A stretch of 64,000 bases of DNA from Firmicutes bacterium ADurb.Bin248 (GCA_002069725.1 MWBW01000010.1:1046-65045); one strand, 5' to 3'; shown: positions 1,600 through 46,923, numbered from the stretch's first letter. Translations and numbers: made by a program. Notes: generated by a model not told the origin, from the letters alone.

Positions 1600-1612
1600 T
1601 TCATTACCTCTG

Positions 1613-3574
<1,962 letters not shown>

Positions 3575-8006: not shown

Positions 8007-9389
8007 TTATCCAACCGCCTTGAGCAGCATGTACATCCTTTGGTAGCTGTCGCCCGAGCTGTCCGCGCAGGTTACGATGACCATGACCTTGTCGTTCGAA
8101 GTCATGGAGCCGAGCGTCGCGCCCTTGTAGGAGGAGTTGCAGTAACCCATCATGTAGTTGATCCACTCCTGCAGCGCGGCGCCGGTGCGGTAGGACTGCA
8201 TGGCCGCCATAAGCTGGATGTTCTTGCGCGTGGTGGAGGAGCTGACGGTCGAGCTGGAGGCCTCGAAGAAGCCTACGAGCTGCCAGCGGGAAGAGCCGTT
8301 GTAGTTGATGTTGAACACGCTCGTCTTCGCGCCGGAGCAATCCTTGCCGCAGTATTCGCACTTGGCCTTGCCCAGCCACGCGTTCTGCACGTGGTGGAGC
8401 TGGTGCATGCCCGTGCCGGACTTGCGCATGTTGTGGCCGTAGATGACCGCGATGGGGTTGGTGAGGTAGCTCAGCGCGTAGAAGTAGTTGTAGCTCGAGG
8501 AGTACGCGTTGTAATAGAAGTTGCCCTTCTTGTCTATGGCGTTGCAGTAGATGGCCTGGCTGATGTTGGTGCCGTCCACCTGCATGTAGCCCCACTGGTC
8601 CGCCGAGGAACCCGTATAACTGGCATAGGAAAGCGTGCCGCCGGTCGTGCCGCTCGTGGCCCCGCCGGAAGTGCCGCCGGTGGTGCCGCCCGGCGCGCTT
8701 GAGATCTTGACGTACGGCCCGTAGATCCAGCCGGTGTAGGTCTTATAGTTGACCTTCCAGTATTTGCCGCCCGAGGTGTTGTCGAGTATGACCACGCTCG
8801 CGCCCTTGGGTATGGTGTTGCAGCCGGAAACCTTCGCGGACGAGGTGTCCGAGCCTATGCGGAAGTTGCACGTCGCGGTCGTCACGCCGTAGACGGTCGT
8901 GTTCGACGCGGTGCCGCCCGAGGTCGAGCCCGAGGTGGAGCCCGAGGAGCTTCCGCCGCCGAGGCTACCCGTGGTGCCGCCCGAGGTCGAGCCGGAAGTC
9001 GGGCCGCCGGAAGTGCCGCTTGGGGTGCCGCCGCTGAGCGAACCGCTCGTGGTACCGCCGGAAGCGCCGCCCGAAGTCGAACCCGAGGTCGAGCCCGAGC
9101 CGGAAGCGTTGAGCTTGACGTACGCGCCGTAGATCCAGCCGGTGTAGGTCTTATAGGCGACCTTCCAGTATTCGCCGCCGGTGGTGTTGTCCAGGACGGT
9201 CACGCTCGCGCCCTTGGGGATGGATTTGCATTCCGCAACCTGGGCGTAGGACTGGCCCGGTCCCGTGCGGAAGTTGCATTTCGTCGTGGTGACGCCGGTG
9301 ACCGTTTCGGCAAGCGTCGCCGCCGGCAGGAGCGTGAGCAGCACGGCCAGCGCGAGCGCGGCTGCAAGCATGCGGTGTGTTTTGTTCAT
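8007..9389 (-). CDS. Secreted protein: signal peptide + 2 x SH3b domains + C-terminal class B sortase-like domain
   Basis: Start taken at MNKTHRMLAAALALAVLLTLLPAATLAETV (RBS AGGAAAGGA upstream). There are two SH3_3-like modules (CNFR(T/I)G...IPKGASV.(V/I)LDNT.GG.YWKV.YKTYTGWIYG.YVK) separated by G/S/T linkers. The C-terminus aligns by eye to S. aureus SrtB: GYMQVDGTNISQAIY ~ GWIKLSGTSLNYPVL; VIYGHNMRKSGTGM ~ ILYGHHVGDNTM; VIVTCADSSGDSYQR ~ LSTCEDAYSETTKR, with Cys-to-Arg spacing +10 in both. Confidence 0.75.
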   Translation of the reverse strand: MNKTHRMLAAALALAVLLTLLPAATLAETVTGVTTTKCNFRTGPGQSYAQVAECKSIPKGASVTVLDNTTGGEYWKVAYKTYTGWIYGAYVKLNASGSGSTSGSTSGGASGGTTSGSLSGGTPSGTSGGPTSGSTSGGTTGSLGGGSSSGSTSGSTSGGTASNTTVYGVTTATCNFRIGSDTSSAKVSGCNTIPKGASVVILDNTSGGKYWKVNYKTYTGWIYGPYVKISSAPGGTTGGTSGGATSGTTGGTLSYASYTGSSADQWGYMQVDGTNISQAIYCNAIDKKGNFYYNAYSSSYNYFYALSYLTNPIAVIYGHNMRKSGTGMHQLHHVQNAWLGKAKCEYCGKDCSGAKTSVFNINYNGSSRWQLVGFFEASSSTVSSSTTRKNIQLMAAMQSYRTGAALQEWINYMMGYCNSSYKGATLGSMTSNDKVMVIVTCADSSGDSYQRMYMLLKAVG

Positions 9390-29291: not shown

Positions 29292-29430
29292 CCCCTCCCC
29301 GCCTATTGTAACCGGGCCGGGGCGGCTTGGCAACCGCGCACGGGGCGGCGGCGGAAGGATCGCGAAACGGACGGCGAAAAAGCCCTCCGCATTTCGGGCG
29401 AAGGGCGCTTGAAAAGATTCCGGCCGGCGA

Positions 29431-29898: not shown

Positions 29899-30079
29899 GG
29901 TGAAAACCTCCTGTCAATATGGATGTTTGCATGGGAATGCACAGCTTCATTATACACGCGGGCGGACGAGTTCGCAATGCGCACGTGGAAAAGGCCGAAA
30001 AAATTCGCAGCAATGCGTGCGAAAGGGGTTCGCTCCCCGCGCGCCCGAGCCCGAACCGCGGATTTTGCCCGTCCGGCGC

Positions 30080-30988
30080 TCAGACGCTCTCGTGCGGCGT
30101 GTAATAGCGCTCGTTCATGAAGCAGCGCGAGAAGCGGGAGGCCGTTTTGTTCCCCTTGCAGACCGCAAGCGTCAAATCGACCGTATACCATTTTTCGGTT
30201 TTGGAATCGTACGCGCTGTTCCAGGCGTGGTAGCCGTTGATCTTGGTGCTGTAGCCCTTGACAAGCTTGCACGGGATGCCCTGGCTGCGGCACATCGCGG
30301 CGAAAAGGGAGGCGAAATCGTAGCACACGCCTTTTTTGTTCGAAAGTATGCTCTCGGGGTTCGGCGTGTAGGCCGTGATCTGCCCGGAGATGACCTTGTT
30401 GGCGAAGTCGTAATCGTATTTGAAATTTTTTGCGATGTAATTGTAGATGGCGAGTATCTTCGCCTGATCGCCCTTGAGATCCTTGCACAGGGCGGCCGCC
30501 TTCCTGGCGATGGAGTCGTTCGCCGAGAAGGCGATTTCGGAAACGCTCCTGAGATACTGCGCATACTGCGGCGCAGCCGCGTTCGCCGCGCCCGCGGGTA
30601 CGGCGGAATCGCCCACGAGCGCCGTGAAGCTCTTCTGCGCGACGGTCACGTAGCTCGCGCCGACCTTCTTGAACAGCGCCGCGGAATAGCTGCCGCTGCC
30701 GCCGGTGAGCGCGAGCGAGAGGGTCATGCCCATTTTATAATCGTAGTAGGACCAGCTTCCGCCGTTAAAGCCCAGCCCCGCCTTCATCGCGGCGGAGGAG
30801 CCGTCGTCGTGAAAAAGGACGATGTACCCGAGCGAGGCCGTGGATGCGTCTATGCCCGCGCTCCGGCCCGCCGTCGAGAGCGAGCCGGAGGTGAGCGGCT
30901 CTCCCGCGGCGGCCGCGGGGGACGCAAGGGCGCTCAGCGCCAGGATCAGCGCGAGGGCAAGCGCGCCATGCCGGAACTGCTTTTTCAC
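30080..30988 (-). CDS. Secreted transglutaminase-like (Cys-His-Asp) protein
   Basis: GTG 30988 start (VKKQFRHGALALALILALSALASPAAAA signal peptide). Core KGVCYDFASLFAAMCRSQGIPCKLVKGY...GYHAWNSAY...WYTVDLT. Confidence 0.75.
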   Translation of the reverse strand: MKKQFRHGALALALILALSALASPAAAAGEPLTSGSLSTAGRSAGIDASTASLGYIVLFHDDGSSAAMKAGLGFNGGSWSYYDYKMGMTLSLALTGGSGSYSAALFKKVGASYVTVAQKSFTALVGDSAVPAGAANAAAPQYAQYLRSVSEIAFSANDSIARKAAALCKDLKGDQAKILAIYNYIAKNFKYDYDFANKVISGQITAYTPNPESILSNKKGVCYDFASLFAAMCRSQGIPCKLVKGYSTKINGYHAWNSAYDSKTEKWYTVDLTLAVCKGNKTASRFSRCFMNERYYTPHESV

Positions 30989-31434
30989 GTTTTCCGTCCT
31001 TTCTTTTCGCGAGGCGGCGCGCCGGGACCGGCCTATGCCTCTCAACTGCCCGAAAACGAAGAAAAAGCTCTCGTTTCGGCAACTGGCTGCCATGCGCTTT
31101 CGCGTTTAGGCCCTCTAGCTTTGCGGCCCCGCCTTTGGACGGGTGTGCCGGTTCGTCGGGATCTTCCGAACGGATATTCGATTCCGGCAACATTATAATT
31201 ACATCTACATAATATTGTCAAGTATAAAATTGTAACCGGGACGAAACGCGCCGTTTCCTGCCGAAAGCGCAGCCCCTGCGGCCGCGGCGCGGTTGCTCCG
31301 AGGTTGCGCGAGGGATGAAGCAAGGCGTCATGCGGCGCAACATTCGGCACAGGCCGTGCAATTCCACGCATTTCCGGAGGCGGAAGCCCAATTAGTTTAC
31401 AGAATATAGAAAAAAGGCGTCGAAAACGGCCTTT

Positions 31435-31544: not shown

Positions 31545-34500
31545 ATGATGAAGAGGATCGGCTTGGCCAAGCTCCTGGCGCTCGCCATGACGCTGGTGAT
31601 GGTGTTTTCGGCGGTGAGCCCGGCGCTCGCCTGCGACATCAGCCAGACGACTATTTACTATTATAGAACCGCTGCGGAGAGCGCTTATGCCTCTTACGAT
31701 GTGGCTGCGGGCACCGGCACGAGCACAACGGTCAAGCACACGCTCAAGTCCGCGCCCACGCGCAACGGCTACACGTTCACCGGCTTCAACGTGTATGTCG
31801 GCAGCAAGACGGGTACGCTCATCAAGAGCAACGCCGCACCGGGCACATCGGTGAGCATACCGCTCACGCGCACGAGCACGGGCAAGAGCTGGCCCACGAT
31901 ACATGTGGTGGCCCAGTGGAGATCCAACTGCGTCACCTACGACGTGATCTTCAAGACCGTGCTCGTGGACGGCAAGGGCGGGCAGATCGGCAAGACGGGC
32001 TCCACGCTCGGCTATGCCGACATCGAGTACCTCAACAAGCAGCCCGACACCACGTTCCCGGCGATCCCGGTGACCGATCCCGACCCGGGCTATGTTTTCC
32101 TCGGCTGGTACACCTACAACGGTGCCACCTATACGAAGGTGACGTCGTTCCCGACCAAGATCGACAAGGATTACACCTTCTATGCCCGCTGGGAGGCCAA
32201 GCCCTACGTCGAGCGCAGCGTCTACACCCTCCATTATATAGGTAAGCCTTCCGACACGACCGGCGTCGTGTGGCCCGCGGACGTCGAGAAGCAGGCGTCC
32301 CCCGTCACAACGCTGGGCGTTGCCAGCAAGGTGGGCGCGACGTTCAACGGATGGAAGCTCAACGGCACGGGCGCGAACCGGACGACCCTCGCCGCTTCGG
32401 ACTACACAAAGAGTACGGCCGCGCCCGTCATCACCTACGACGCCGCCACGGACTCCTTCATCCGCACGACCGAGTACATCGCCAACGTCCACGGCGCGTT
32501 CGTCGCGCTCGAGGACGTGATTGAAAAATACTTCTCCGTTACTTACAAAATCGACCTCAACGGCGACGGCGACTATGCCGACGCGGGGGAGACGACGCTC
32601 GCCTTCGTCGACGCCCCGGTTATGCCCACCGCGGTCAATGCCGACGTTTCGGTGCCGGGCTACACCTTCGCGGGCTGGTATAAGAACGGCTCGGCCCCGA
32701 AGCTCACGACGCTCGCCTTCTCGAACTACGATCTCGACGCCTCCCGCACGCAGACCATCCCCGCGGGCCCCGGCACCGCCAAACGCATCAAGAATTACTA
32801 TTCGATCACGCTCGTGGGCACGCTGACCAAGAAGACCTGCCAGAAGAATCTCTACAACGTGACCTACACCGGCGATAAGGCCGGGGCCACCACCTGGCCC
32901 AACGACGTTGCCAACGCCACGAGCGCGCCCTCTCTCGCCGCGGACGCGACGAAGAACGGCTATACCTTCAACGGCTGGAAGATCGGCGGCAGCTCCGTCG
33001 GCTCCATCAACTGGAGCGCGAGCTACGTCACCGTCGCGAGCCGCGAATACTACGACCCGGCGCTCGGAAAGTTCGTCACGGAGACCACGCGCTCGGTCAC
33101 GGTGGTCGGCACCTTCACCAAGTGCGCCGACATCGAGCAGAAATACTACACGGTCGTCTACAAGATCGACCTCAACCTCGACGGCGTCGCCGAGGAAGTC
33201 GCCATGCCCGGCTATACCGTGAACAACGTCACCCCGATGCCCACGGGCGTCGCGGGCGCGCCCTCCGGCATCCCCGCCGGGTACAGCTTCATCGGATGGA
33301 GCGAGTCCGCGCCGCTCGCGCAGAGCGACTTCTCCTTCGTATCCGAAGAGACGGTCCCCAGCGGCACGCCCGGCGTGGGCGCTGTGCACAAGGTCTACTA
33401 TAAGCTGGCCATTACCGGCACGCTGAACAAGCTGACCTGCCAGAAGGACCTCTACAACGTGACTTACACCGGCGACAAGGCCGGGGCCACCACCTGGCCC
33501 AACGACGTCGCCAACGCCGCGAGCGCGCCTTCCCTCGCCGCGGACGCGACGCGGAACGGCTATACCTTCAGCGGCTGGAAGATCAACGGCAGCTCCGTCG
33601 GCTCCATCAACTGGAGCGCGAGCTACGTCACCGTCGCGAGCCGCGAATACTACGATCCGACGCTCGGAAAGTTCGTCACGGAGACCACGCGCTCGGTCAC
33701 GGTGGTCGGCACCTTCACCAAGTGCGCGGACATCGAGCAGAAATATTACACCGTCGTCTACAAGATCGACCTCAACCTCGACGGCGTCGCCGAGGAAGTC
33801 GCCATGCCCGGCTACACCGTGAACAACGTCACCCCGATGCCCACGGGCGTCGCGGGCGCGCCCTCCGGCATCCCCGCCGGATACAGCTTCATCGGATGGA
33901 GCGAGTCCGCGCCGCTCACGCAGAGCGACTTCTCCTTCGTATCCGAGGAGACGGTCCCCAGCGGCACGCCCGGCGTGGGCGCTGTGCACAAGGTCTACTA
34001 CAAGCTGGCCATTACCGGCACGCTGAACAAGCTGACCTGCCAGACGACGCTCTACAACGTGACTTACATCGGCGACAAGGCCGGGGCCACCACATGGCCC
34101 AACGACGTCGCCAACGCCGCGAGCGCGCCCTCCCTCGCCGCGGACGCGACGAGGAACGGCTACACGTTCAGCGGCTGGAAGATCGGCGGCAGCCCCGTCG
34201 GTTCCATCAGCTGGAACGCGAGCTACGTCACCGTCACGAGCCGCGAGTATTACGACGTTTCTCTCGGCAGATTCGTCACGGAGACCACGCGCTCGGTCAC
34301 GGTGGTCGGCACCTTCACCAAGTGCGCCGACATCGAGCAGAAATACTACACGGTCGTCTACAAGATCGACCTCAACCTCGACGGCGTCGCCGAGGAAGTC
34401 GCCATGCCCGGCTATACCGTGAACAACGTCACCCCGATGCCCACGGGCGTCGCGGGCGCGCCCTCCGGCATCCCCGCCGGGTACAGCTTCATCGGATGGA

Positions 34501-37500
34501 GCGAGTCCGCGCCGCTCGCGCAGAGCGACTTCTCCTTCGTATCCGAAGAGACGGTCCCCAGCGGCACGCCCGGCGTGGGCGCTGTGCACAAGGTCTACTA
34601 TAAGCTGGCCATTACCGGCACGCTGAACAAGCTGACCTGCCAGAAGGACCTCTACAACGTGACTTACACCGGCGACAAGGCCGGGGCCACCACCTGGCCC
34701 AACGACGTCGCCAACGCCGCGAGCGCGCCTTCCCTCGCCGCGGACGCGACGCGGAACGGCTATACCTTCAGCGGCTGGAAGATCAACGGCAGCTCCGTCG
34801 GCTCCATCAACTGGAGCGCGAGCTACGTCACCGTCGCGAGCCGCGAATACTACGATCCGACGCTCGGAAAGTTCGTCACGGAGACCACGCGCTCGGTCAC
34901 GGTGGTCGGCACCTTCACCAAGTGCGCGGACATCGAGCAGAAATATTACACCGTCGTCTACAAGATCGACCTCAACCTCGACGGCGTCGCCGAGGAAGTC
35001 GCCATGCCCGGCTACACCGTGAACAACGTCACCCCGATGCCCACGGGCGTCGCGGGCGCGCCCTCCGGCATCCCCGCCGGATACAGCTTCATCGGATGGA
35101 GCGAATCCGCGCCGCTCGCGCAGAGCGACTTTTCCTTCGTATCCGAGGAGACGGTCCCCAGCGGTACGCCCGGCGTGGGCGCGGTGCGCAAGGTCTACTA
35201 TAAGCTCGCCGTCACCGGCACGCTGAACAAGCTGACCTGCCAGACGACGCTCTACAACGTGACCTACACCGGCGACAAGGCCGGGGCCACCACCTGGCCC
35301 AACGACGTCGCCAACGCCACGAGCGCGCCCTCCCTCGCCGCGGACGCGACGCGGAACGGCTACACCTTCAGCGGCTGGAAGATCGGCGGCAGCCCCATCG
35401 GCTCCATCAACTGGAACGCGAGCTACGTCACCGTCACGAGCCGCGAGTACTACGACGTTTCTCTCGGCAAATTCGTCACGGAGACCACGCGCTCGGTCAC
35501 GGTGGTCGGCACCTTCACCAAGTGCGCCGACATCGAGAAGGAATACTACACCGTCGTTTACCGGATCGACCTCAACCGGGACGGCGTCGACGAGATCGTC
35601 AACATGATGGGCTACAGCGTCAGCGAAGTCGAAACCATGCCCACGGGCGTGGCGGGTTCGCCCATCATCCCCAACGGCTATACCTTCGGCGGGTGGGACA
35701 AGGACGCGCCTCTGGCGAAGGGCGACTTCACCGTTGAGCGCCAGGGAACGACCCCGAGCACGCAGCCCGGCGTGGGCGCGGTGCACAGCGTGTATTATAC
35801 GCTCACCATCAAAGGCACGCTGGACAAGCAGACCCTTGCCAAGACCGTCTACACCGTTCTTTACACCGGCGAGAAAGCCGGAGCGACCACCTGGCCCAGC
35901 GACGTGGTCGACGCCGAGACCCCGCCGACCCTCGCCGCAGACGCGACGAAGAACGGCTATACCTTCAACGGCTGGAAGATCAACGGCAACTCCGCCGGCT
36001 CGCTCAACTGGAGCGCGGGCTACGTCGTGAGCACGACCGACGCGGAGTACTACGACGCGGGCCTCAAGAAGTTCGTGACGGTGACGCACAAGACCATCAC
36101 GGTCACGGGCGCGTTCACCAAGTGCGAGGACGTCGAGGAGAAATACTTCTCCGTCACCTATAAGATCGACCTCAACGGCGACGGCGACTATGCCGACGAG
36201 AACGAGACCGTCAACGCCTACGTCGAGGCATCCCCCATGCCCACCGCGGTCAGCGCCGAGCTCGCGCTCGACGGTTATACCTTCGCGGGCTGGTTCAAGC
36301 AGGGCACGGACACGAAGCTCACCGCGCTCGCCTTCACGGATTACACTTTCGACCGGACGGTGACCGTACCCGGCGGCGTGGGCACGCCCAAGACCATCAA
36401 GAACTACTACGTCATCACGCTGACGGGCACGCTGAGCAAGCAAACGCTCGCCAAGACCGACTACTCGGTGACCTACACGGGCGACAAGGCCGGCGCGACC
36501 TTCTGGCCGGCGGACGTCGTGCGGGCCGCGAGCGCGCCCTCCATCGCCGCAGACGCGACGAAGAACGGCTATACCTTCAGCGGCTGGAGCCCCGCCTCGC
36601 TCGACTGGAACGCGGGCTACGTCGACGTGCAGACCGATTCCGAGTATTATGATGCGAGCCTCAAGAAGTTCGTGACGGTGACGCACAAGACCATCACGGT
36701 CACGGGCGCGTTCGTCAAGTGCGAGGACGTCGAGGAGAAGTATTTCTCCGTCACCTACGAGATCGACCTCAACGGCGACGGCGACTATGCCGACGCGGGC
36801 GAAACCGATCCCGCATACGTCGAGACGTTCCCCATGCCTGCCTCCGTCAGGCCGGACGTTTCCAAGGACGGCTATACCTTCCACGGCTGGTATAAGAAGG
36901 GCACGTCGGAGAAGCTCAGCGCGCTCGCCTTCGCGAACTACGATTACGTGCGCACCGTCACCGTGCCGGCAGGCGCGGGCACGCCGCAGATCACCAAGCA
37001 CTATTACGCCGTCACGCTCAGGGGTTCGCTCGTCAAGAGAGTCTGCCAGCAGACCTATTACAGCGTGAGCTACACCGGCGACAAGGAAGGCGCCGCCACC
37101 TGGCCCAACGACGTTGTGAACGCAGCGAGCGCCCCGTCCCTCGCCGCCGACGCGACGAAGAACGGCTTCGACTTCACCGGCTGGAAGATCAACGGCAGCC
37201 CGGTATCCTCGCTCAACTGGTATGCGAGCTACGTGACGGTGACGAGCCTGCCCGAGGAATACGACCCCGAGAGCGGCATGTTCATCACGAAGATCCACCG
37301 CTCCATCACCGTCGAGGGCCGCTTCGTCAAGTGTCCGGATATCGAGCAGGCCTTCTACTCGGTCATTTATAAGATCGACCTCAATCTGGACGGCGTCGCC
37401 GAAGAGGTCAACATGCTCGGCTACACCGTCACGAACGTCACCAAGATGCCCACGGGCGTCGCGGGCTCGCCCGACATCCCCGCCGGCTACAGCTTCAACG

Positions 37501-40460
37501 GGTGGGATCAGGCGCCGCCGCTCGAACTGGGCGATTTCTCCGTGACCTCCGAGGGCACGACGCCCAGCACGCTGCCCGGCGTGGGCGCGATCCACACGGT
37601 GCATTACCTGTGCAGCATCAAGGGCGCCATGACCAAGAACGAGCTGAACGTGGATGTGTACACCGCGCGCTATAACGTGCGCAACGACACCGCCGCGACG
37701 GTCGGCACGTACGACGCGGAGCAGACGGGCTCGGCCCCGCTGAGCGCGCAGGCGCTGCCCTCCGTGACGAAGGGCTACTCGATCCACGGCTGGTACGTGC
37801 AGCTCGACGAGAGCAACACGCCTTACGGCGGGGGCGACGCGCTCCCCTGGGGCTTTGCGAGCGTCAGCGTCGATGAAAAGCTCGAGAAGCACGGCAGCGC
37901 CTGGTACTGGGTGACCTACCACTACTATGCGCTCGGCCTTTCCGCGGTTGTCAGCGAGAACGAGCACGGCCGGGCGGAAGAATACAACCTCAGCTACAGC
38001 ATCGCGGGCGGCCCGTACACCGATCCGACCAGCGGCGCCGCGCTCAGCGCAAGCGGCATACCCGGCGACGTCTTTGCCTCGCCGACCATGCCCGCGCTCG
38101 GAGGCAATCCCTCGATGAAGGGTCACTCGTTCCAAGGCTGGATGCAGGGCGGCGCCGCGATCGGCTCGAGCGCGGACATCGACTGGACCCAAACCACGCG
38201 GCAGGACTACGACGAAGCAAACGACCGCATCATCGACGTGACCATCTATACCGCTGCGGTTTCGGGCGGCTTTACGATGAACCAGGGCGAGCGGACGAGC
38301 TACAACCTCGCCTACTCCTTCGCCAACGAGCCTTATCAGACGCCCGACGGCCTGAACCTCACCATCGGCAACAGGCCGGCCGACGTGAACGGCGCTTCAA
38401 CCCCGCCCGCCCTCGCGGGCGCGCCCTCGGCGCAGGGCCATACCTTCACCGGCTGGACGCAGAACGGCGCCGCCGTGAGCGACGCGACGCTCGCCTGGGG
38501 CAGCGCGGCCGTCAGCTACGAATACGACGCGGACAACGACAGATTCGTTCGGGTCTCGACCTACAGCGCGGCGGTCGTCGGCGACTTCACGCGCAACACC
38601 GGCGAGGAAACCCTGTATAACCTGACTTACACCATCGACGGCGAGCCGTATACGGACCCCGAGGGCAGGACGCTCAGCATAGGCAACCTCCCCGCGAACG
38701 TGAACGACTCCACGACCCGGCCGGGCCTCGCGGGCGCGCCGACGCTCGACGGCCACTCCTTCTCGGGCTGGAAGCAGGCGGGCAATCCCGTGGACGACGC
38801 GAGCCTCGACTTCGGCACGCCGGGCGTCGGCTACCGCTACGACGAAGCAGGCGACCGCTACGTCATGGTCTACAACTACTCCGCGGCCGTCTCCGGCTCC
38901 TTCACGCTCAACGAGATCGTCGAGAAGGAGATCTGGAACCTCACCTACACCGGCGACAAGGATCTCGCCGACCCGGGCACTTGGCCCGACGACCTCACCA
39001 ACCAGGCCAGCGAGCCCGCGCTGACCGGCCTGACGCCGGCCAAACGCGGCTACACCTTCGGCGGCTGGAAGCAGGGCGGCGCGTCCGTGACGGACATCGC
39101 CTGGTCCGCGACGCTGAGCTACGCGCTGGGCGCGGGCAACCGCTTCGTAAAGACCACCACGTATGAGGCGGCCATCGAAGGCAGGCTCACCATGAAGGGC
39201 GGCGTCGACGAGTATGTCTACATCGTGGACTACACCGTGCACGGCGGCTCGAACGATTACAGCCACCTCGACGTCAACGTCACGAATCCTCCCGCGCTCC
39301 CGACCATCGAACCCGAGCCCAGCGAGAGCGGCAAGGTGTTCGGCGGCTGGAACCCCGGTTCGCTCGACTGGGACGGCACCCCGGCCGTGCCGGGTGAACC
39401 GCGCTTCGACGAGACGCTCGACAAGTGGGTCACGCCCTACACCAAGAAGATCGACGTCACGGGCAGCTTCGGAGAGGTCGGGCATGTGTACGTCTACGAG
39501 CTGAGCTTCACCGGCCCCTCCGGCGCGACGTTGCCCGGCATGAAGAGCGGCACCTCCGTGCAGACCATAGAGGGCGAGACCGCCTCGCTCGACGGCCAGC
39601 GCTTCACGGGCTGGAGCCCCTCGAGCATCGGCGAGAGCGACTACACGGAGAACGAATCCCGCAAGACCGTTTCGGGCGACGGCCTGACCGTTACGCATTA
39701 CATGGAGGCCAGCACGCAGGCGCAGTTCGTCCCGACGGAAGGCCGCGAGCACTATACGCTGCATTATGAGATCGTGGGCAGCGTGCCCGGCCAGCCCGCC
39801 AACCCGCCGGACGAGACGGGCACAAGCCCCATCACGCCCAGCGCGCCGGTGAGCCTCGAGGGCTACAACTTCTCCGGCTGGTCCACCCCGGCGTGGGGCG
39901 TCGTGAACGTCACCAGCGAGATCGTCGACGGCGTCGATGTTTCCACGACCTGGTACGAAGCCACGGTCATCGGCTCCTTCACCGACATGCAGATCGTCGA
40001 GGACATCCGCTATTCGCTGCTCTATCAGGGCTACGTCAGCGGCGTCACCAACTGGCCCGGCGACGTGATCGACTCGACCATACCGCCCGCGCTCTCGGGC
40101 AGCCCGTACCTGTCCGGCTATCAGTTCAACGGCTGGGCGCCCGGTACGCTCGACTGGTCGAAGGCGAGCGCCAGCGTCGGCACGCAGGTCGTCACGCCCG
40201 AGGGGGGCGCGCCCTACATACTCAGGACCACGACCTACACGCTGATCGTCACGGCCAGCTTCTCGGGCTACTACCCGCCGCCGACGTCCTATCCCACGTA
40301 CGGCCCCGTGCCCACGCCGACCAAGCCGCCTCTGGGCACGCCGCAAACTGGCAACACCGGCCTGATCATCTTCTTCGCGGTGTTCTCGCTGATCACGGTC
40401 ATCTTCACGGCGAGCCTGTTCATCCGCAAGAAGATGCGCGCCATCGAGGAAGAGGATTGA
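31545..40460 (+). CDS. Giant (2971 aa) cell-surface protein built of InlB B-repeat / Listeria-Bacteroides-repeat modules with a C-terminal xPQTG sorting signal
   Basis: RBS GAGGGGG. Signal peptide MMKRIGLAKLLALAMTLVMVFSAVSPALA. Dozens of (P)x(K/R)xGY(T/S)FxGW motifs. The C-terminus is PLGTPQTGNTGLIIFFAVFSLITVIFTASLFIRKKMR. Confidence 0.9.
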   Translation: MMKRIGLAKLLALAMTLVMVFSAVSPALACDISQTTIYYYRTAAESAYASYDVAAGTGTSTTVKHTLKSAPTRNGYTFTGFNVYVGSKTGTLIKSNAAPGTSVSIPLTRTSTGKSWPTIHVVAQWRSNCVTYDVIFKTVLVDGKGGQIGKTGSTLGYADIEYLNKQPDTTFPAIPVTDPDPGYVFLGWYTYNGATYTKVTSFPTKIDKDYTFYARWEAKPYVERSVYTLHYIGKPSDTTGVVWPADVEKQASPVTTLGVASKVGATFNGWKLNGTGANRTTLAASDYTKSTAAPVITYDAATDSFIRTTEYIANVHGAFVALEDVIEKYFSVTYKIDLNGDGDYADAGETTLAFVDAPVMPTAVNADVSVPGYTFAGWYKNGSAPKLTTLAFSNYDLDASRTQTIPAGPGTAKRIKNYYSITLVGTLTKKTCQKNLYNVTYTGDKAGATTWPNDVANATSAPSLAADATKNGYTFNGWKIGGSSVGSINWSASYVTVASREYYDPALGKFVTETTRSVTVVGTFTKCADIEQKYYTVVYKIDLNLDGVAEEVAMPGYTVNNVTPMPTGVAGAPSGIPAGYSFIGWSESAPLAQSDFSFVSEETVPSGTPGVGAVHKVYYKLAITGTLNKLTCQKDLYNVTYTGDKAGATTWPNDVANAASAPSLAADATRNGYTFSGWKINGSSVGSINWSASYVTVASREYYDPTLGKFVTETTRSVTVVGTFTKCADIEQKYYTVVYKIDLNLDGVAEEVAMPGYTVNNVTPMPTGVAGAPSGIPAGYSFIGWSESAPLTQSDFSFVSEETVPSGTPGVGAVHKVYYKLAITGTLNKLTCQTTLYNVTYIGDKAGATTWPNDVANAASAPSLAADATRNGYTFSGWKIGGSPVGSISWNASYVTVTSREYYDVSLGRFVTETTRSVTVVGTFTKCADIEQKYYTVVYKIDLNLDGVAEEVAMPGYTVNNVTPMPTGVAGAPSGIPAGYSFIGWSESAPLAQSDFSFVSEETVPSGTPGVGAVHKVYYKLAITGTLNKLTCQKDLYNVTYTGDKAGATTWPNDVANAASAPSLAADATRNGYTFSGWKINGSSVGSINWSASYVTVASREYYDPTLGKFVTETTRSVTVVGTFTKCADIEQKYYTVVYKIDLNLDGVAEEVAMPGYTVNNVTPMPTGVAGAPSGIPAGYSFIGWSESAPLAQSDFSFVSEETVPSGTPGVGAVRKVYYKLAVTGTLNKLTCQTTLYNVTYTGDKAGATTWPNDVANATSAPSLAADATRNGYTFSGWKIGGSPIGSINWNASYVTVTSREYYDVSLGKFVTETTRSVTVVGTFTKCADIEKEYYTVVYRIDLNRDGVDEIVNMMGYSVSEVETMPTGVAGSPIIPNGYTFGGWDKDAPLAKGDFTVERQGTTPSTQPGVGAVHSVYYTLTIKGTLDKQTLAKTVYTVLYTGEKAGATTWPSDVVDAETPPTLAADATKNGYTFNGWKINGNSAGSLNWSAGYVVSTTDAEYYDAGLKKFVTVTHKTITVTGAFTKCEDVEEKYFSVTYKIDLNGDGDYADENETVNAYVEASPMPTAVSAELALDGYTFAGWFKQGTDTKLTALAFTDYTFDRTVTVPGGVGTPKTIKNYYVITLTGTLSKQTLAKTDYSVTYTGDKAGATFWPADVVRAASAPSIAADATKNGYTFSGWSPASLDWNAGYVDVQTDSEYYDASLKKFVTVTHKTITVTGAFVKCEDVEEKYFSVTYEIDLNGDGDYADAGETDPAYVETFPMPASVRPDVSKDGYTFHGWYKKGTSEKLSALAFANYDYVRTVTVPAGAGTPQITKHYYAVTLRGSLVKRVCQQTYYSVSYTGDKEGAATWPNDVVNAASAPSLAADATKNGFDFTGWKINGSPVSSLNWYASYVTVTSLPEEYDPESGMFITKIHRSITVEGRFVKCPDIEQAFYSVIYKIDLNLDGVAEEVNMLGYTVTNVTKMPTGVAGSPDIPAGYSFNGWDQAPPLELGDFSVTSEGTTPSTLPGVGAIHTVHYLCSIKGAMTKNELNVDVYTARYNVRNDTAATVGTYDAEQTGSAPLSAQALPSVTKGYSIHGWYVQLDESNTPYGGGDALPWGFASVSVDEKLEKHGSAWYWVTYHYYALGLSAVVSENEHGRAEEYNLSYSIAGGPYTDPTSGAALSASGIPGDVFASPTMPALGGNPSMKGHSFQGWMQGGAAIGSSADIDWTQTTRQDYDEANDRIIDVTIYTAAVSGGFTMNQGERTSYNLAYSFANEPYQTPDGLNLTIGNRPADVNGASTPPALAGAPSAQGHTFTGWTQNGAAVSDATLAWGSAAVSYEYDADNDRFVRVSTYSAAVVGDFTRNTGEETLYNLTYTIDGEPYTDPEGRTLSIGNLPANVNDSTTRPGLAGAPTLDGHSFSGWKQAGNPVDDASLDFGTPGVGYRYDEAGDRYVMVYNYSAAVSGSFTLNEIVEKEIWNLTYTGDKDLADPGTWPDDLTNQASEPALTGLTPAKRGYTFGGWKQGGASVTDIAWSATLSYALGAGNRFVKTTTYEAAIEGRLTMKGGVDEYVYIVDYTVHGGSNDYSHLDVNVTNPPALPTIEPEPSESGKVFGGWNPGSLDWDGTPAVPGEPRFDETLDKWVTPYTKKIDVTGSFGEVGHVYVYELSFTGPSGATLPGMKSGTSVQTIEGETASLDGQRFTGWSPSSIGESDYTENESRKTVSGDGLTVTHYMEASTQAQFVPTEGREHYTLHYEIVGSVPGQPANPPDETGTSPITPSAPVSLEGYNFSGWSTPAWGVVNVTSEIVDGVDVSTTWYEATVIGSFTDMQIVEDIRYSLLYQGYVSGVTNWPGDVIDSTIPPALSGSPYLSGYQFNGWAPGTLDWSKASASVGTQVVTPEGGAPYILRTTTYTLIVTASFSGYYPPPTSYPTYGPVPTPTKPPLGTPQTGNTGLIIFFAVFSLITVIFTASLFIRKKMRAIEEED
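32838..35837 (+). repeat. Five in-frame ~600-bp tandem copies (200-aa double B-repeat supermodule) inside the giant gene
   Basis: The C-Q-(K/T)-x-LYNVTY(T/I)GDKAGATTWPNDVANA module restarts at 32838, 33438, 34038, 34638 and 35238. More diverged copies follow at about 35838, 36447 and 37043. Segment 33072-33904 is base-for-base identical to 34272-35104. Confidence 0.95.
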
Positions 40461-40551: not shown

Positions 40552-40587
40552 ACGGGGGCGGCCGCAAGGCCGCCCCCGTCTCTTTTT
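40552..40587 (+). terminator. Rho-independent terminator after the giant gene
   Basis: ACGGGGGCGGCC-GCAA-GGCCGCCCCCGT followed by CTCTTTTT. It is preceded by a second hairpin, GGAGCGGCC-GAAA-GGCCGCTCC, at 40487-40508. Confidence 0.75.
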
Positions 40588-40721
40588 GGCCGCGCGGCAG
40601 GACGCGGCGCGAAAAACTTCGCGTCGACGTTTTTTTCAGCTTCCCTCGAGTTATGGGAACATTAATAATTTACCGTCATTATATGTCGAATGGGTAAATT
40701 ATAGAATGTTTTTTACGATTT

Positions 40722-40836: not shown

Positions 40837-41853
40837 ATGAAAACCAAAAGCATCTTCAAAAAGTTGGCGGCGCTCGCCGTCGTCCTCGCGCTCGTGCTGA
40901 GTCTCGGGGGCGCCGCACTGGCCGCGCCGGCGACGGTGACGGTTAACTTTAACGCGAACGGCGGCTCTCCGACACCGGCGTCGATAGAGGTTCCCGTGAC
41001 CGGAAGCGGCTGGACAGCAAGAATTACATTCAGCTTACCCACCGAGGCGGAATGCTCCAGGCCCGGGTATGCGCTGCTTTACTGGAATCACGGCGTCCTG
41101 CCCGGCGAGCCTGGCGATACGATGACCATTTTTCTGTTTGACAACTATTCCGCGCGGACCGTTACCGCACAGTGGATCGCCGCGGAGGATCATTACATCC
41201 TCAAATATGACATCACGTCCACGATCGACGGTCAGCCTGCCGATCCCCCGGATGAGCATTCTGACGCTCCCATCGTACCCGACGCCGAGGCATCCATGCC
41301 GGGTTATTATTTCTCCGGTTGGGCGCCTAATCCTCCCGACTGGAAGCTCATCAGCAGGGAACTTGTGGGCAGGGGAGACGACACCCACATGGTGCGCTTC
41401 TACGAGGCCACCGTCGAAGGCTTATTCACCGAGCTGGAGCCTGTTTACAGGACGACGTACACCCTCATCTTCGAGAACAAGCAGCCCGGCGTCGTATTCT
41501 GGCCGAATGATACCATAGGCTCCGAAACCATACCCTCGTATCCGGGAGACCCGGTGCTGGCGGGCTATCGGTTCGTCGGTTGGGACCCCGCTACGCTCAA
41601 GTGGGACAAAGCCAAGGTGACGGTCACCTACGATGTCATAACTCCGGAGGGGGATGACGCTCCGTATTTGCTGATCACCACGAATCGTGCGCTGACGCTC
41701 ACAGCCGTGTTCGAGGGCATTCCGACGCCGGCGACCCCGATTGAAGCGCCGCAGACGGGCGACGTCAACTATCTGGGCTACGCCATGCTGCTGCTCGGGC
41801 TCTCCGCGGGCCTCGCAGGCTTCGTGTTCGTGCGCAGCCGCAGGAAGAATTGA
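40837..41853 (+). CDS. Cell-surface InlB B-repeat protein (338 aa) with APQTGD sorting signal
   Basis: Signal peptide MKTKSIFKKLAALAVVLALVLSLGGAALA. PGYYFSGW and AGYRFVGW modules. C-terminus IEAPQTGDVNYLGYAMLLLGLSAGLAGFVFVRSRRKN. Its C-terminal third parallels the end of the giant protein (HY(T/I)L.Y(E/D)I...GQPA(N/D)PPDE...). Confidence 0.88.
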   Translation: MKTKSIFKKLAALAVVLALVLSLGGAALAAPATVTVNFNANGGSPTPASIEVPVTGSGWTARITFSLPTEAECSRPGYALLYWNHGVLPGEPGDTMTIFLFDNYSARTVTAQWIAAEDHYILKYDITSTIDGQPADPPDEHSDAPIVPDAEASMPGYYFSGWAPNPPDWKLISRELVGRGDDTHMVRFYEATVEGLFTELEPVYRTTYTLIFENKQPGVVFWPNDTIGSETIPSYPGDPVLAGYRFVGWDPATLKWDKAKVTVTYDVITPEGDDAPYLLITTNRALTLTAVFEGIPTPATPIEAPQTGDVNYLGYAMLLLGLSAGLAGFVFVRSRRKN

Positions 41854-43102: not shown

Positions 43103-44170
43103 TCAGCCGGCGTAGTTTCGGTCGATTCTTCTTGTCATGGAGTCCGGATCGGAGGCGAAGTTGACCGCGTTGTCGTAGCTGATGCGCCCCTTGCGGTAGA
43201 GCTGCGTGATGCTCGCGCCCATGGAGATCATGGTTTCCGGGTTCGCGTAGATCACGTTGTCGATCTGGTGCGCTTTGCCCTCGCGGATGAGGTTCCGGAC
43301 GGCCGGGTTCGCGATCATGACCTCGAACGCGGGCGTCACGCCGCCGTCCACGGTGGGGATGAGCTGCTGGGATACGACCGCGTTGAGCGTCATCGAGAGC
43401 TGCACGCGCACCTGCTGCTGCTGGCCCGTCGGGAACACGTCTATGATCCTGTCCACGGTTTTGGCGGCGCCTATGGTGTGCAGCGTGGAGAGCACGAGCT
43501 GCCCGGTTTCCGCCGCGGTCATGGCGATGCTGATGGTCTCGTAATCCCGCATCTCGCCGACGAGTATCACGTTGGGCGCCTGGCGCAGCGCGTAGCGCAG
43601 CGCGCTCTTGAAGTCCTCGGTATCCAGGCCGACCTCGCGCTGGCTCACGATGCTCCTGTCGTTCTTGTAGAGGTACTCGATGGGGTCCTCAATCGTGATG
43701 ACGTGGCTGGGCAATGTCCTGTTGATGCGGTCCACGATGCAGGAGAGCGTCGTGGATTTGCCGCTGCCCGCGGGACCGGTGATCAGCACGAGGCCCTTCT
43801 TGGCGCTGTAAAGGTTGATCACGCCCGCCGGGATGCTGAGCAGCGCGGGGTCGGGCAGTTCGTGGCGCACGACCCGGATCACGGCCGCGCAGGAGCCCCG
43901 CTGGCGGTACACCGCCGTGCGGAACCTGCCCACGCCCGGTATGGAGAGGGAAAAGTCGTCGTCGCCCGTGCTCTGGAAGCGTTCCAGGCTGCGGTTCCCG
44001 GCGAGCTGGTAGATCTCGCGCACGAGCGCCTCGGTCTTGGCTGAGGTCATCGGCGCGTCCCCGCGGGGGGTGACCACGCCCGCGATTTTGAACGCGAGCG
44101 GGGAGCCCGGCGCGATGATCACATCGGATACGTTGAGGCTGATGGCCTCGATGAGCGTTTTTTCAATCAT
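43103..44170 (-). CDS. pilT: PilT-family type IV pilus retraction-type ATPase
   Basis: 355 aa. LITGPAGSGKSTTL (Walker A), VILVGEMRD (Walker B), TGQLVLSTLHT, and the PilT signature NPAVRNLIREGKAHQIDN. Confidence 0.85.
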   Translation of the reverse strand: MIEKTLIEAISLNVSDVIIAPGSPLAFKIAGVVTPRGDAPMTSAKTEALVREIYQLAGNRSLERFQSTGDDDFSLSIPGVGRFRTAVYRQRGSCAAVIRVVRHELPDPALLSIPAGVINLYSAKKGLVLITGPAGSGKSTTLSCIVDRINRTLPSHVITIEDPIEYLYKNDRSIVSQREVGLDTEDFKSALRYALRQAPNVILVGEMRDYETISIAMTAAETGQLVLSTLHTIGAAKTVDRIIDVFPTGQQQQVRVQLSMTLNAVVSQQLIPTVDGGVTPAFEVMIANPAVRNLIREGKAHQIDNVIYANPETMISMGASITQLYRKGRISYDNAVNFASDPDSMTRRIDRNYAG

Positions 44171-44672
44171 ACATTGTCACCCCGTCCCATAGAAATGGCA
44201 GTTGAGTATATTCCAGATCCCCGGTGACGACCGTGGCGTTGCGAACGAGCGTATAGCCGCCGCCGTCGAGCCGCACCCGGGTTTCCAGCGCCGTGTAGTC
44301 CGAAACCGCCGTGAAGAACGTTATGGTCGCCTCGCTTTGCGCCTTCTCATAAACGTACTTTTCGGCGGCGAGCGCCCCCTCCGCGTCCGGCCCGTCGAGT
44401 ATGCCCCCGGCGAGCAGCGCGTCGAGCCGGGCGAGACGCCGCTGCGCTTCGGCGTCCGCCTCATACCAGCGCACCGTGTTGTCGCCCATGCGCGAGGCGA
44501 GGCGCATCTCCGCGTTCGCGCTCACGAGCGAGAGCGCCGCGAAGCACACGAGGCAGAGCATCACGAACAGTATGATGACGCTCGGCGCGCCCACCGCGGC
44601 GAAGCCGCGCGCCGCGCGCCCGGGCGGGAGGCGCCGCGCGCTCACGCGCCGCCTCCCATAAAGCGCGCGCAT
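44163..44672 (-). CDS. Small membrane-anchored protein of the type IV filament-like operon
   Basis: 169 aa. Arg-rich N-terminus, then a single TM segment SVIILFVMLCLVCFAALSLV. Overlaps both neighbours, suggesting translational coupling. Confidence 0.5.
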   Translation of the reverse strand: MRALYGRRRVSARRLPPGRAARGFAAVGAPSVIILFVMLCLVCFAALSLVSANAEMRLASRMGDNTVRWYEADAEAQRRLARLDALLAGGILDGPDAEGALAAEKYVYEKAQSEATITFFTAVSDYTALETRVRLDGGGYTLVRNATVVTGDLEYTQLPFLWDGVTMYD

Positions 44673-45055
44673 GAAAGAGAATAGATCGCTTCCCCGTCCT
44701 TCTCGCGGACGGACACCGTCATTTCACACATGCCGCCGGCCCGCTCGCACTCGAGCCGGAGTATGTACTCCTGCAGCCCGCCCGGCAAAAAGCTCGGATC
44801 GAGCCACGCCTCGTATCCGCCCTCGGCCTCAACCGCGCCGTAACGCACGGTGAAATCCGCCTCGGGGGAAATTGACGTGCGAACGAGCTCCGCCGCGGAG
44901 CTCGCCGCGAGTATCGCGCCGGAGAGCTCCGCGGCCTCTCCGGCGCGCTTGTCCGCGCCGACGAAGAGCGTGATCACCGCCGTCGCCGCGAGCGCGAAGA
45001 ACAGTATGACCGCAGTCATCTCCACGAGAAAGGCGTAGCCACCGCGCGCGTTCAC
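44642..45055 (-). CDS. Pseudopilin-like protein (degenerate prepilin leader)
   Basis: 137 aa. MNARGGYAFLVEMTAVILFFALAATAVITL resembles the (K/R)G-FTLxEM class III leader but has one extra residue before the Glu. Confidence 0.5.
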   Translation of the reverse strand: MNARGGYAFLVEMTAVILFFALAATAVITLFVGADKRAGEAAELSGAILAASSAAELVRTSISPEADFTVRYGAVEAEGGYEAWLDPSFLPGGLQEYILRLECERAGGMCEMTVSVREKDGEAIYSLSCARFMGGGA

Positions 45056-45543
45056 GGGGAGGCCTCCCCGGCGCGGAGCCGCACATCGAGCGCGCGCATG
45101 GTCCCCTCGAAGGTGTAGGCCGTGAAGGCGTAGCCGCCCTCGATCTCGCGTATGGTGAAATCCGCGAGCTCGGCGATCCTCTGCCCCGCGCCGGGATCGA
45201 AGCGCGCGGCGGCCTCGACGGTCTGCTCCATCAGCGCGCCGTCGAAGAAATAGACCAAAGTCACGCTTTCCCGCTCCTCGTCCCGCAGGCGGAGCACGGG
45301 GAGCCCTTCCGCCTGCTCGATGTCCACGCCGCCAGCGCCGTCGTGCGCGTGGAGCTTGTTGGCGACGTACGAGAGGGACGCGCGCAGGTTGTACCCGTCG
45401 TCCATGCGTCCGGCCACGCGCTCATATACGGCCGCGCCGTAGAGCGCCTGCAGCAGGCTCAGCAAAGCGAATGCCGTGAACAGCAGCAGCATCGCCGCCG
45501 TCGCAGTGATGCCGCGCCCCGCGTCCCGAAGCATGCGCGTCAC
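45052..45543 (-). CDS. Small N-terminally anchored protein (possibly DUF4860-like) of the filament operon
   Basis: 163 aa. MTRMLRDAGRGITATAAMLLLFTAFALLSLL. 4-nt overlaps with both neighbours. Confidence 0.45.
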   Translation of the reverse strand: MTRMLRDAGRGITATAAMLLLFTAFALLSLLQALYGAAVYERVAGRMDDGYNLRASLSYVANKLHAHDGAGGVDIEQAEGLPVLRLRDEERESVTLVYFFDGALMEQTVEAAARFDPGAGQRIAELADFTIREIEGGYAFTAYTFEGTMRALDVRLRAGEASP

Positions 45544-45869
45544 CTCCTCGCGACCCAGATGGTCGGGTAGACGTTCGAGGCGAAGGCCTCGTGGTGGATG
45601 TAATACTTGCTCTGGTCGACCTCGAGGCCGTAGTTTTCAATGAGATAATCGATGCCGGGCGGATAGAAGCCCTCCATGGCGTAGCAGGAAACCACCGCGC
45701 GGTTGACCGCGCGCTCGACGAGCGCAAGCTCCTTTTGCTCCACGCCCAGCCGCGTGCGCTCTATGCCGCGGAGCATCAGCGTCAGGCAGGCCAGGAAAAC
45801 CGCCGCCGTGACGAGAAGCCCGCCCCACCACGGAAAGCCCGCGTTCCGTTTTCCGATGCGCCGCGCCAT
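45540..45869 (-). CDS. Small N-terminally anchored protein of the filament operon
   Basis: 109 aa. MARRIGKRNAGFPWWGGLLVTAAVFLACLTLML. A G-F junction is present but there is no Glu5. Confidence 0.45.
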   Translation of the reverse strand: MARRIGKRNAGFPWWGGLLVTAAVFLACLTLMLRGIERTRLGVEQKELALVERAVNRAVVSCYAMEGFYPPGIDYLIENYGLEVDQSKYYIHHEAFASNVYPTIWVARR

Positions 45870-45879
45870 ACCGCCCCGC

Positions 45880-46923
45880 TCAGCCGATGCCCGCCATGAT
45901 GTCCATCAGCGGCAGCGTCACCGAGAGCAGTATCGCCCCGATGATGAGGCACAGCAGCGCCACGAGCGCGGGCTCTATGACGCCCACGAGCCGGGCGATC
46001 GAGCGGTCGATCTCATCCTCGTAGAGGGCGGCGACCTTGGCGCTCACGCGCTCGAGCGCGCCCGCGCGAAAGCCCACGCCGAGTATGTGCGCGTACATGC
46101 CCGGGAAGAGACCGCTTTCCTCGACGGCTTTGGAAAAGGACGCGCCCTGGGCTATGGCCTCGCGGCAGGCGAGTATCTGCGCGGCCGCCCTGTCGCTGTC
46201 TACGACGAGGGGCAGTTTCGCGAGCGCGTCGTCGAGCGCGTACCCGCTTTCGAGCAGCATCGAGAGCGCGAAGGCGAAACGTCCCGCGGCGATTTTTTCG
46301 GCGAGCCTTCGCGTGAAGCCGAGGCGCGCCAGGCCGCGCATGAGCGCGGCGTAGCCCGAGGCGGAGCGTAGCCTCGCAAAGAGATGGATGCACAGGACGA
46401 GCATCAGCGCCGCGAGCGCGAGCGCGAGGTAGCCCGCGATCTCGCCGAACGACGCGATCTCCGGAGAAACCGCGCCCGCCGCGCCCCCGAGGTCCGCGAA
46501 CACATCCGCGAAAACGGGCAGCACCCGGATGAGCAGCACCGCGATCACGACGATCATGATCGCCACGAGCGCCATCGGGTAGAACACCGCGGATTTGATC
46601 TGGTTTCTGACGGCGTGCTCGCGCTCGTAGTAGAGGCCGAGCGCCTCCATGACCTGCTCGAGCTTGCCCGCGGCTTCGCCCAGATCCACCATGCCCAGCA
46701 TATAATCCGGGAAGGCGTCCGTTGCGCGCATCGCGGGTGCGAGTCCGGCGCCGCCCTGCAAGGCGGTATGGAGCCTCGCGACGACGGGGTCGCCGCTTTC
46801 CTTGGCCATGGCCGCCATGCCGTCGGGCAAAAACATGCCGGTGCGCAGCACCAGCGCAAGCTCCGCGCAAAACGCGGAAAGCTCCTGCGCCGTATAGGGC
46901 CGGACGCCGTTTTTGTTCGCCAT
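45880..46923 (-). CDS. Type II secretion system F-family (PilC/ComGB-like) platform protein
   Basis: 347 aa. Two T2SSF-like halves with conserved TM helices (AVFYPMALVAIMIVVIAVLLIRVLPVF... and ...ALVALLCLIIGAILLSVTLPLMDIM). Confidence 0.8.
   Translation of the reverse strand: MANKNGVRPYTAQELSAFCAELALVLRTGMFLPDGMAAMAKESGDPVVARLHTALQGGAGLAPAMRATDAFPDYMLGMVDLGEAAGKLEQVMEALGLYYEREHAVRNQIKSAVFYPMALVAIMIVVIAVLLIRVLPVFADVFADLGGAAGAVSPEIASFGEIAGYLALALAALMLVLCIHLFARLRSASGYAALMRGLARLGFTRRLAEKIAAGRFAFALSMLLESGYALDDALAKLPLVVDSDRAAAQILACREAIAQGASFSKAVEESGLFPGMYAHILGVGFRAGALERVSAKVAALYEDEIDRSIARLVGVIEPALVALLCLIIGAILLSVTLPLMDIMAGIG

Follow-up and report, generated by a model that had tools for sequence, protein, structure and literature searches.

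The question raised by this locus is whether two proteins that carry TPQTG or APQTG in place of LPXTG near their C termini bear genuine sortase signals, and which enzyme might act on them. The two B-repeat surface proteins, one giant and one a paralog of 338 amino acids (aa), are encoded in a 64-kb stretch of DNA from Firmicutes bacterium ADurb.Bin248 (GCA_002069725.1, MWBW01000010.1:1046-65045; G+C content, 64%). This whole stretch is called the window here, and positions are counted from its first nucleotide. The window also encodes a protein with SH3b domains (the SH3b protein), the candidate enzyme. The two C-terminal tails have the architecture of sorting signals, are conserved, and match models of LPXTG anchors. 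We conclude with good confidence that both are genuine conserved cell wall sorting signals of the sortase type, belonging to the clostridial xPXTG kind.

Translation confirmed the claim of an earlier note on this DNA that the giant protein ends in PLGTPQTGN, a hydrophobic stretch, and RKKMR, and it added AIEEED after the basic patch, so that the C terminus reads ...KPPLGTPQTGN-TGLIIFFAVFSLITVIFTASLFI-RKKMR-AIEEED. The C terminus of the 338-aa protein reads ...TPIEAPQTGD-VNYLGYAMLLLGLSAGLAGFVFV-RSRRKN. Here the note was right about the presence of a signal but not about its extent, as the positions given for the motif (41749-41760) span PQTG only and APQTG occupies 41746-41760. In both proteins the xPxTG motif stands 1 residue ahead of the hydrophobic stretch, 23 uncharged residues are followed by RKKMR or RSRRKN, and position 1 of the pentapeptide is Thr (giant protein) or Ala (338-aa protein) rather than Leu. 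The proposed tripartite, sortase-type layout with a first residue other than Leu was therefore borne out by translation on both tails. Both proteins also begin with a predicted Sec signal peptide (read by eye from the translations), whose basic n-region is followed by a hydrophobic core and ALA. Both match PF09479, the Listeria-Bacteroides B-repeat (E = 4.3e-59 for the giant protein and 6e-8 for the 338-aa protein), and the giant protein alone of the two matches TIGR02543, in 11 stretches.

When all six frames of the window were scanned for xPxTG ahead of an uncharged stretch and a basic tail close to the C terminus, these two open reading frames (ORFs) were the only ones returned. The string x-P-x-T-G occurs 7 times in the 46 called genes (18,506 aa). 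Only two of the seven occurrences lie within 45 residues of a C terminus, and both are the ones described here, indicating that their placement is not due to chance. The pentapeptide alone is not diagnostic, since APQTG also occurs by chance inside the protein encoded at 59100-60803 (-), in two internal PAAPQTGAYQAP strings far from the C terminus. That protein combines a zinc-ribbon at its N terminus with a Pro/Gln-rich repeat and a transmembrane segment.

Word-indexed homolog searches returned four proteins with the 338-aa query and three with the giant query. The four relatives of the 338-aa protein (100% identity, 72% for P0002, 67% for P0003, and 51% for P0004) all have an invariant E-A-P-Q-T-G-D and keep the hydrophobic segment and the basic tail. 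P0004, from a Clostridia metagenome-assembled genome (MAG), carries the NCBI name "LPXTG cell wall anchor domain-containing protein." On two related loci (L001 and L002), an ortholog of the giant protein lies upstream of the 338-aa ortholog. Its C terminus reads KPPLGTPQTGNTGLIIF...RKKVRAIEEED, with an identical PLGTPQTGN, whereas the linker ahead of PLGTPQTGN is SGYYPPPTSYPTYGPVPTPT in the window and VKEGGPDPTPDPSPTPT in the ortholog. Giant homologs at 46-53% identity end in PIGVPNTGS, PLGSPNTGS, and PLGTPGTGG at the same place, and a more distant syntenic paralog on locus L038 ends in VPQTGS. Among distant homologs Pro and Thr-Gly are constant, the X position drifts, and position 1 is small or beta-branched; at 30-50% identity, P and TG keep the same short spacing to the hydrophobic segment while their surroundings vary. 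A fixed P and TG with variable X and first positions is the pattern expected for a protease or sortase recognition site. The earlier note had made its reading depend on whether PQTG is kept in orthologs. The motif is kept, and its conservation confirms that it is under selection. An acidic end after the basic patch recurs as well, as AIEEED in the giant ortholog and as DGE, EDGE, QEEE, or EEDE in homologs (P0033-P0042). The 338-aa paralog has no acidic extension.

An exhaustive phmmer search with the 338-aa query against 1.84 billion cluster representatives gave 187 matches. Motifs were tallied in the 150 of these matches that were listed, together with the relatives found earlier, and 38 proteins had x-x-x-T-G, a hydrophobic segment, and a basic tail. 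Position 1 of these 38 signal-bearing B-repeat homologs was V in 11, A in 9, T in 6, S in 6, I in 4, and L in 2. A residue other than Leu in 36 of the 38 indicates that, in these uncultured Firmicutes, B-repeat surface proteins normally carry non-Leu signals. Pro was found at position 2 in 36 (34 as scored, plus two TPQTGNTG tails that were re-registered) and Asp after the Gly in 18, and SPQTG, SPNTG, and SPSTG were all represented. The earlier note had set the signals apart from LPXTG. It was correct that they lack Leu, but this is not unusual in their context, and the label non-LPXTG needs qualification, as hidden Markov models (HMMs) of LPXTG anchors score both tails at or just under the cutoff and an ortholog is named an LPXTG anchor by NCBI.

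With TIGR01167 (cutoff, 15.9), the scores were 17.0 for the whole 338-aa protein, 22.4 for its tail, and 15.1 for the giant tail. With PF00746 (cutoff, 20), the whole 338-aa protein was not listed, its tail scored 20.3, and the giant tail scored 16.8. The 338-aa protein is thus above both LPXTG-anchor cutoffs (TIGR01167 on the whole protein and PF00746 on the tail). NF033846, the Ruminococcus NPXTG model, remained under its threshold (13.2 bits; cutoff, 23.5), and other SrtB-signal models gave no match at an E value of ≤1. PEP-CTERM matched one tail only, with 13.8 bits (cutoff, 20.7; E = 0.065). The PEP-CTERM and Ruminococcus NPXTG identities were dropped, both being well under the cutoff; no other C-terminal sorting model of NCBIfam or Pfam came close. 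In the searchable literature, APQTG and TPQTG were not found as natural sorting motifs; they appeared only as unrelated peptides, and APXTG appeared only with engineered sortases. APQTG and TPQTG are a new pair of variants of an already known signal type, not a new type. Both signals are typical of their protein family, and current HMMs half-recognize them.

A sorting signal of this kind would work as follows. Sec would export each protein by means of its N-terminal signal peptide, and the C-terminal hydrophobic segment and basic patch would retain it in the membrane. A sortase-family cysteine transpeptidase, most likely of the class B type, would then cut T/A-P-Q-T-G between Thr and Gly and transfer the Thr carboxyl to an amine of the peptidoglycan cross-bridge, leaving the B-repeat array displayed at the cell surface. 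For both proteins we infer Thr-Gly cleavage and linkage to the wall.

The earlier note had connected the signals with a class B-like catalytic domain encoded at 8007-9389, in the SH3b protein, and structural comparison upheld this class assignment of the domain. The protein consists of an N-terminal hydrophobic segment or signal peptide, two SH3_3 domains (E = 6.5e-15), Gly/Ser/Thr linkers, and a C-terminal domain. With PF04203 it gave 12.5 bits (E = 0.12), under the cutoff of 26.6, and no NCBIfam model, sortase families included, matched it at an E value of ≤10; in contrast, a canonical SrtB on locus L037 scored 171.8 bits on TIGR03064. The AlphaFold2 (AF2) model of the C-terminal domain had a predicted local distance difference test (pLDDT) value of 87.6 and a predicted template modeling (pTM) score of 0.87. 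The top 19 Foldseek matches of this domain in the PDB were all class B sortases (E = 1.8e-8 to 3e-5; template modeling [TM] score, 0.5-0.7), including those of Clostridium perfringens, Staphylococcus aureus, Streptococcus pneumoniae, Clostridioides difficile, Bacillus anthracis, Listeria, and Streptococcus pyogenes. Class A, C, D, and E sortases ranked after them, with TM scores of ~0.4. A profile of the SH3b family also matched SrtB sequences in the PDB, with E values of 6.2e-5 for C. perfringens and 7.7e-4 for S. aureus. On the basis of this model, the C-terminal domain is predicted to adopt a class B sortase fold.

Scanning of GTDB genomes recovered the SH3b family, which is represented by the window gene and loci L006-L036, in 32 GTDB species. 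The hosts are mostly labeled Christensenellales/Christensenellaceae, Pelethousia, Oscillospiraceae, or unclassified Clostridia MAGs, and the closest relative (93%) is from an anaerobic-digester bin. The family alignment (A2) comprised the window domain and 23 of 28 collected homologs. His67 and Cys189 (domain numbering) are invariant in all 39 aligned family ORFs. Arg199, the catalytic Arg of sortases, is present in 25 of the 39, the window protein included; it is replaced in the other 14 and is absent from the single-copy loci L012-L017. In the window protein, Arg199 lies 10 residues past the Cys, the same spacing as in S. aureus SrtB. Six Cys and His residues of an insert (H77, H80, H81, C92, C95, and C99) are present in 36 to 39 of the 39 ORFs, in the motif H-x2-HHVQNA-x-LG-x3-C-x2-C-x3-C, and this insert may bind zinc. 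The N-terminal hydrophobic segments of most members end in conserved ALA-like sites. Such sites suggest that the SH3b protein may be secreted, with its signal peptide cleaved, and bound to the wall by SH3b rather than anchored in the membrane. Some loci have two tandem paralogs. At L044 4202-5550, one ENA assembly has the gene in three short ORFs, probably through a frameshift or an assembly error in the low-complexity Gly/Ser/Thr linker. A literature search for class B sortases combined with SH3 gave nothing relevant. The SH3b sortase-like family is a more novel object than the two signals.

Several observations weigh against the reading of the tails as sorting signals. Neither the window nor ~16 kb of additional flank of the same genome, which was taken from identical-sequence MAG contigs, yielded a canonical sortase gene. 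The search, by motif regular expression and by phmmer with the TIGR03064 SrtB of L037, also covered the 32 SH3b-family loci, and throughout it recovered the SH3b sortase-like family only. The giant tail is slightly under both LPXTG-anchor cutoffs, the acidic extension after its basic patch is atypical of textbook signals, and the literature on Christensenella sortases and on natural APQTG or TPQTG motifs held nothing relevant. The negative result of the sortase search, the scores of the giant tail, and the acidic extension would also fit with a C-terminal segment that stays uncleaved as a membrane anchor, PQTG being a conserved feature of the linker that undergoes no proteolysis. We regard this as quite improbable, as a P and TG fixed near the hydrophobic segment at 30-50% identity are hard to explain for a passive anchor, and the 338-aa protein passes both LPXTG-anchor models. 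It is hardly credible that the tails belong to another system, such as exosortase/PEP-CTERM, rhombosortase/GlyGly-CTERM, or another Firmicute-specific C-terminal tag. The tripartite layout is common to those systems, and one tail has the weak PEP-CTERM match given above; however, the LPXTG anchors are the best and sole near-threshold models, and the tails contain neither a PEP nor a GG motif. Inspection of the ORFs by eye and of the gene tables for related loci turned up no exosortase- or rhombosortase-like gene, although no search was aimed at these families.

If the tails are sorting signals, as we hold, the SH3b protein could be the cognate enzyme of the T/A-PQTG signals, wall-bound or long-tethered and specialized for xPXTG with a small first residue. 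It is the sole sortase-fold gene seen in ~80 kb of this genome. Its fold is predicted with good confidence, it is homologous to SrtB at the profile level, and it has the invariant His and Cys of its family together with Arg199 at Cys+10. The family and the substrate orthologs are also found in MAGs of one and the same kind, those of uncultured Clostridia. However, the protein fails PF04203 and has no NCBIfam match, unlike the canonical SrtB of L037, and the ALA-type site suggests that the signal peptide is removed and that the enzyme is secreted and bound to the wall by SH3b, not membrane-anchored. The catalytic Arg is replaced in 14 of the 39 family ORFs, including those of single-copy loci. 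Genomic linkage to substrates is common for class B sortases, but this gene is 22 kb away from both substrate genes. Scans of the family's flanks, both motif-based and motif-free (C-terminal hydrophobic segment plus basic tail), found no credible sorting-signal protein within 10 kb of the gene in any of the 32 loci (~480 kb of flanks; two ORFs were spurious). The xPXTG signals are, moreover, much wider spread than the SH3b family. The SH3b protein is therefore a possible but doubtful enzyme for these two signals, and we think it rather unlikely that this SH3b-tethered, probably secreted protein is the working sortase of a Christensenellales-like lineage, recognizing [A/T/S/V]PxTG. If it were, it would represent a new sortase subclass, fixed to the wall through SH3b domains instead of a membrane anchor; the family spans 32 GTDB species, and the sortase models of Pfam and NCBIfam do not detect it.

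The reading of both tails as sorting signals has consequences for genome annotation. Motif searches limited to LPXTG miss the [V/A/T/S/I]PxTG signals of surface proteins from uncultured Christensenellales-like and other Clostridia. Because such searches overlook these signals and the HMMs register them only marginally, too few anchored surface proteins are called in these gut and digester anaerobes. The Thr and Ala variants widen the known (S/P)PXTG set and provide ready peptide substrates for studying class B sortase specificity, KPPLGTPQTGNTG and TPIEAPQTGDVNY.

Table 1. Positions in the window of the two surface-protein genes, their sorting signals, and the SH3b protein
Feature	Position	Strand	Description or basis
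Giant B-repeat surface protein gene	31545..40460	+	2971 aa; ORF and translation
Predicted Sec signal peptide MMKRIGLAKLLALAMTLVMVFSAVSPALA, giant protein	31545..31631	+	Translation by eye: basic n-region, hydrophobic core, terminal ALA
TPQTG and Asn, giant protein	TPQTG 40338-40352, N 40353-40355	+	Translation
Predicted cleavage site, giant protein	Thr2935 (40347-40349) / Gly (40350-40352)	+	
Hydrophobic membrane-retention segment TGLIIFFAVFSLITVIFTASLFI, giant protein	40356-40424	+	23 residues; translation
Basic stop-transfer patch RKKMR, giant protein	40425-40439	+	Translation
Acidic extension AIEEED, giant protein	40440-40457	+	Translation; stop codon at 40458-40460
Two terminator-like hairpins between the giant and 338-aa genes	40552..40636	+	Consensus matches only
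338-aa B-repeat paralog gene	40837..41853	+	ORF, translation, and PF09479
Signal peptide, 338-aa paralog	40837-40923	+	Residues 1-29; translation by eye; ends in ALA
APQTG and Asp, 338-aa paralog	APQTG 41746-41760, D 41761-41763	+	Translation
Predicted cleavage site, 338-aa paralog	Thr307 (41755-41757) / Gly (41758-41760)	+	
Hydrophobic segment VNYLGYAMLLLGLSAGLAGFVFV, 338-aa paralog	41764-41832	+	23 residues; translation
Basic tail RSRRKN, 338-aa paralog	41833-41850	+	Translation
SH3b protein, candidate enzyme	8007..9389	-	460 aa from ATG; gene callers agree on the start
Divergent class B sortase-like domain, SH3b protein	8010-8633	-	208 aa, C-terminal (residues ~253-460)

The features of the two surface-protein genes and of the SH3b protein are listed in Table 1. 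The giant and 338-aa genes are probably separate transcription units because of the terminator-like hairpins between them. Inside the giant gene, a tandem array with a 600-nt (200-aa) period covers 32744-37573 (+); five copies are 89-94% identical, and the others are degenerate. Tandem Repeats Finder left the array undetected because the period is above its limit, and it was detected by a separate repeat search. Arrays of this kind tend to collapse in assemblies or to vary in copy number, and the L038 homolog (46% identity) has 1046 aa. NF033806 (laterosporulin class IId bacteriocin) scored 48.4 bits (cutoff, 40) on residues 525-544 of the giant protein. This match is probably a spurious sum over a short motif repeated in the array, as no stretch is individually significant.

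Upstream of the giant gene and divergently transcribed from it, at 28392-31093 (-), are genes for a DMT/YdcZ transporter, a zinc-ribbon/MamF-like membrane protein, and a secreted protein with a transglutaminase core (30080-31093). This synteny is conserved at L038 6129-9509, and the surface protein could be a substrate of the transglutaminase-like protein. A cluster ~1.2 kb downstream of the surface-protein genes, at 43103-46923 (-), encodes a T2SSE ATPase, a T2SSF platform protein, and four small proteins, each bearing a hydrophobic segment at its N terminus. It resembles a cluster for a type IV pilus or pseudopilus, and the arrangement is kept on L001. The window starts with gyrA, gyrB, and recF at 1-4693 (-). 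On identical-sequence MAG contigs (L042), dnaN, dnaA, rpmH, and rnpA lie just past its left edge, indicating that the window adjoins the replication origin. MAGs that carry the locus of the two signals include GCA_022706965.1, GCA_035367135.1, GCA_035395665.1, and GCA_029553945.1.

Compared with known systems, the two signals are like the canonical LPXTG anchor (TIGR01167/PF00746, class A substrates) in the positions of P, T, and G, in the hydrophobic segment, and in the basic tail, but they have Thr or Ala for Leu, and the giant protein adds the acidic extension. With the class B signals NPQTN (S. aureus IsdC) and NPKTG (B. anthracis) they share the P-Q-T core, with Gly after the Thr as in NPKTG. 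Unlike the NPXTG/NPQTN class B signals (NF033846 and TIGR03068), they lack an Asn at position 1, and their genes have no Isd or heme context. The SH3b protein resembles class B sortases (TIGR03064; PDB 5b23, 1ng5, and 4ux7) in its predicted fold and its TC active-site motif. Its YGHNMRK motif resembles that of the canonical SrtB on L037, and the window protein has an Arg 10 residues past the Cys, as in class B sortases. It differs from them in its lack of HMM membership, its two SH3b domains and long Gly/Ser/Thr linkers, the conserved H-x2-HH...C-x2-C-x3-C insert, the variability of the Arg within the family, and a probable cleaved signal peptide.

The likeness to class B-type signals that the earlier note had pointed out held for two clostridial systems, C. 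difficile with SPQTGDV (PMC4155245) and Mediterraneibacter gnavus with SPXTG (PMC13121745). The only class B sortase of C. difficile 630, SrtB, cuts (S/P)PXTG peptides between T and G, with SPQTG and PPKTG being the best in vitro (PMC4155245). SPQTGDV, contained in the CD2768-derived peptide IHSPQTGDV, is cut by this enzyme between T and G (PMC4155245). CD2768 is the closest characterized signal, and its PQTGDV is identical to that of the 338-aa protein. The signals described here are also like the C. difficile SrtB substrates in having a small residue for Leu at position 1 and a hydrophobic segment followed by a basic tail. In contrast, position 1 is Ala or Thr here and Ser or Pro in C. difficile, no TIGR03064-type SrtB was found in the window or its flanks, and the host is a Christensenellales-like MAG rather than a member of the Peptostreptococcaceae. 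In M. gnavus, the SPXTG superantigens IbpA and IbpB are anchored in vivo by the class B sortase SrtB3, and deletion of srtB3 frees them from the wall (PMC13121745). The proteins of the window belong to another family than IbpA and IbpB and have another first residue, and the evidence there is genetic, whereas here it comes from sequence. Like M. gnavus, with its in vivo anchoring of xPXTG proteins through a class B sortase, the host is of a gut or anaerobe Clostridia lineage.

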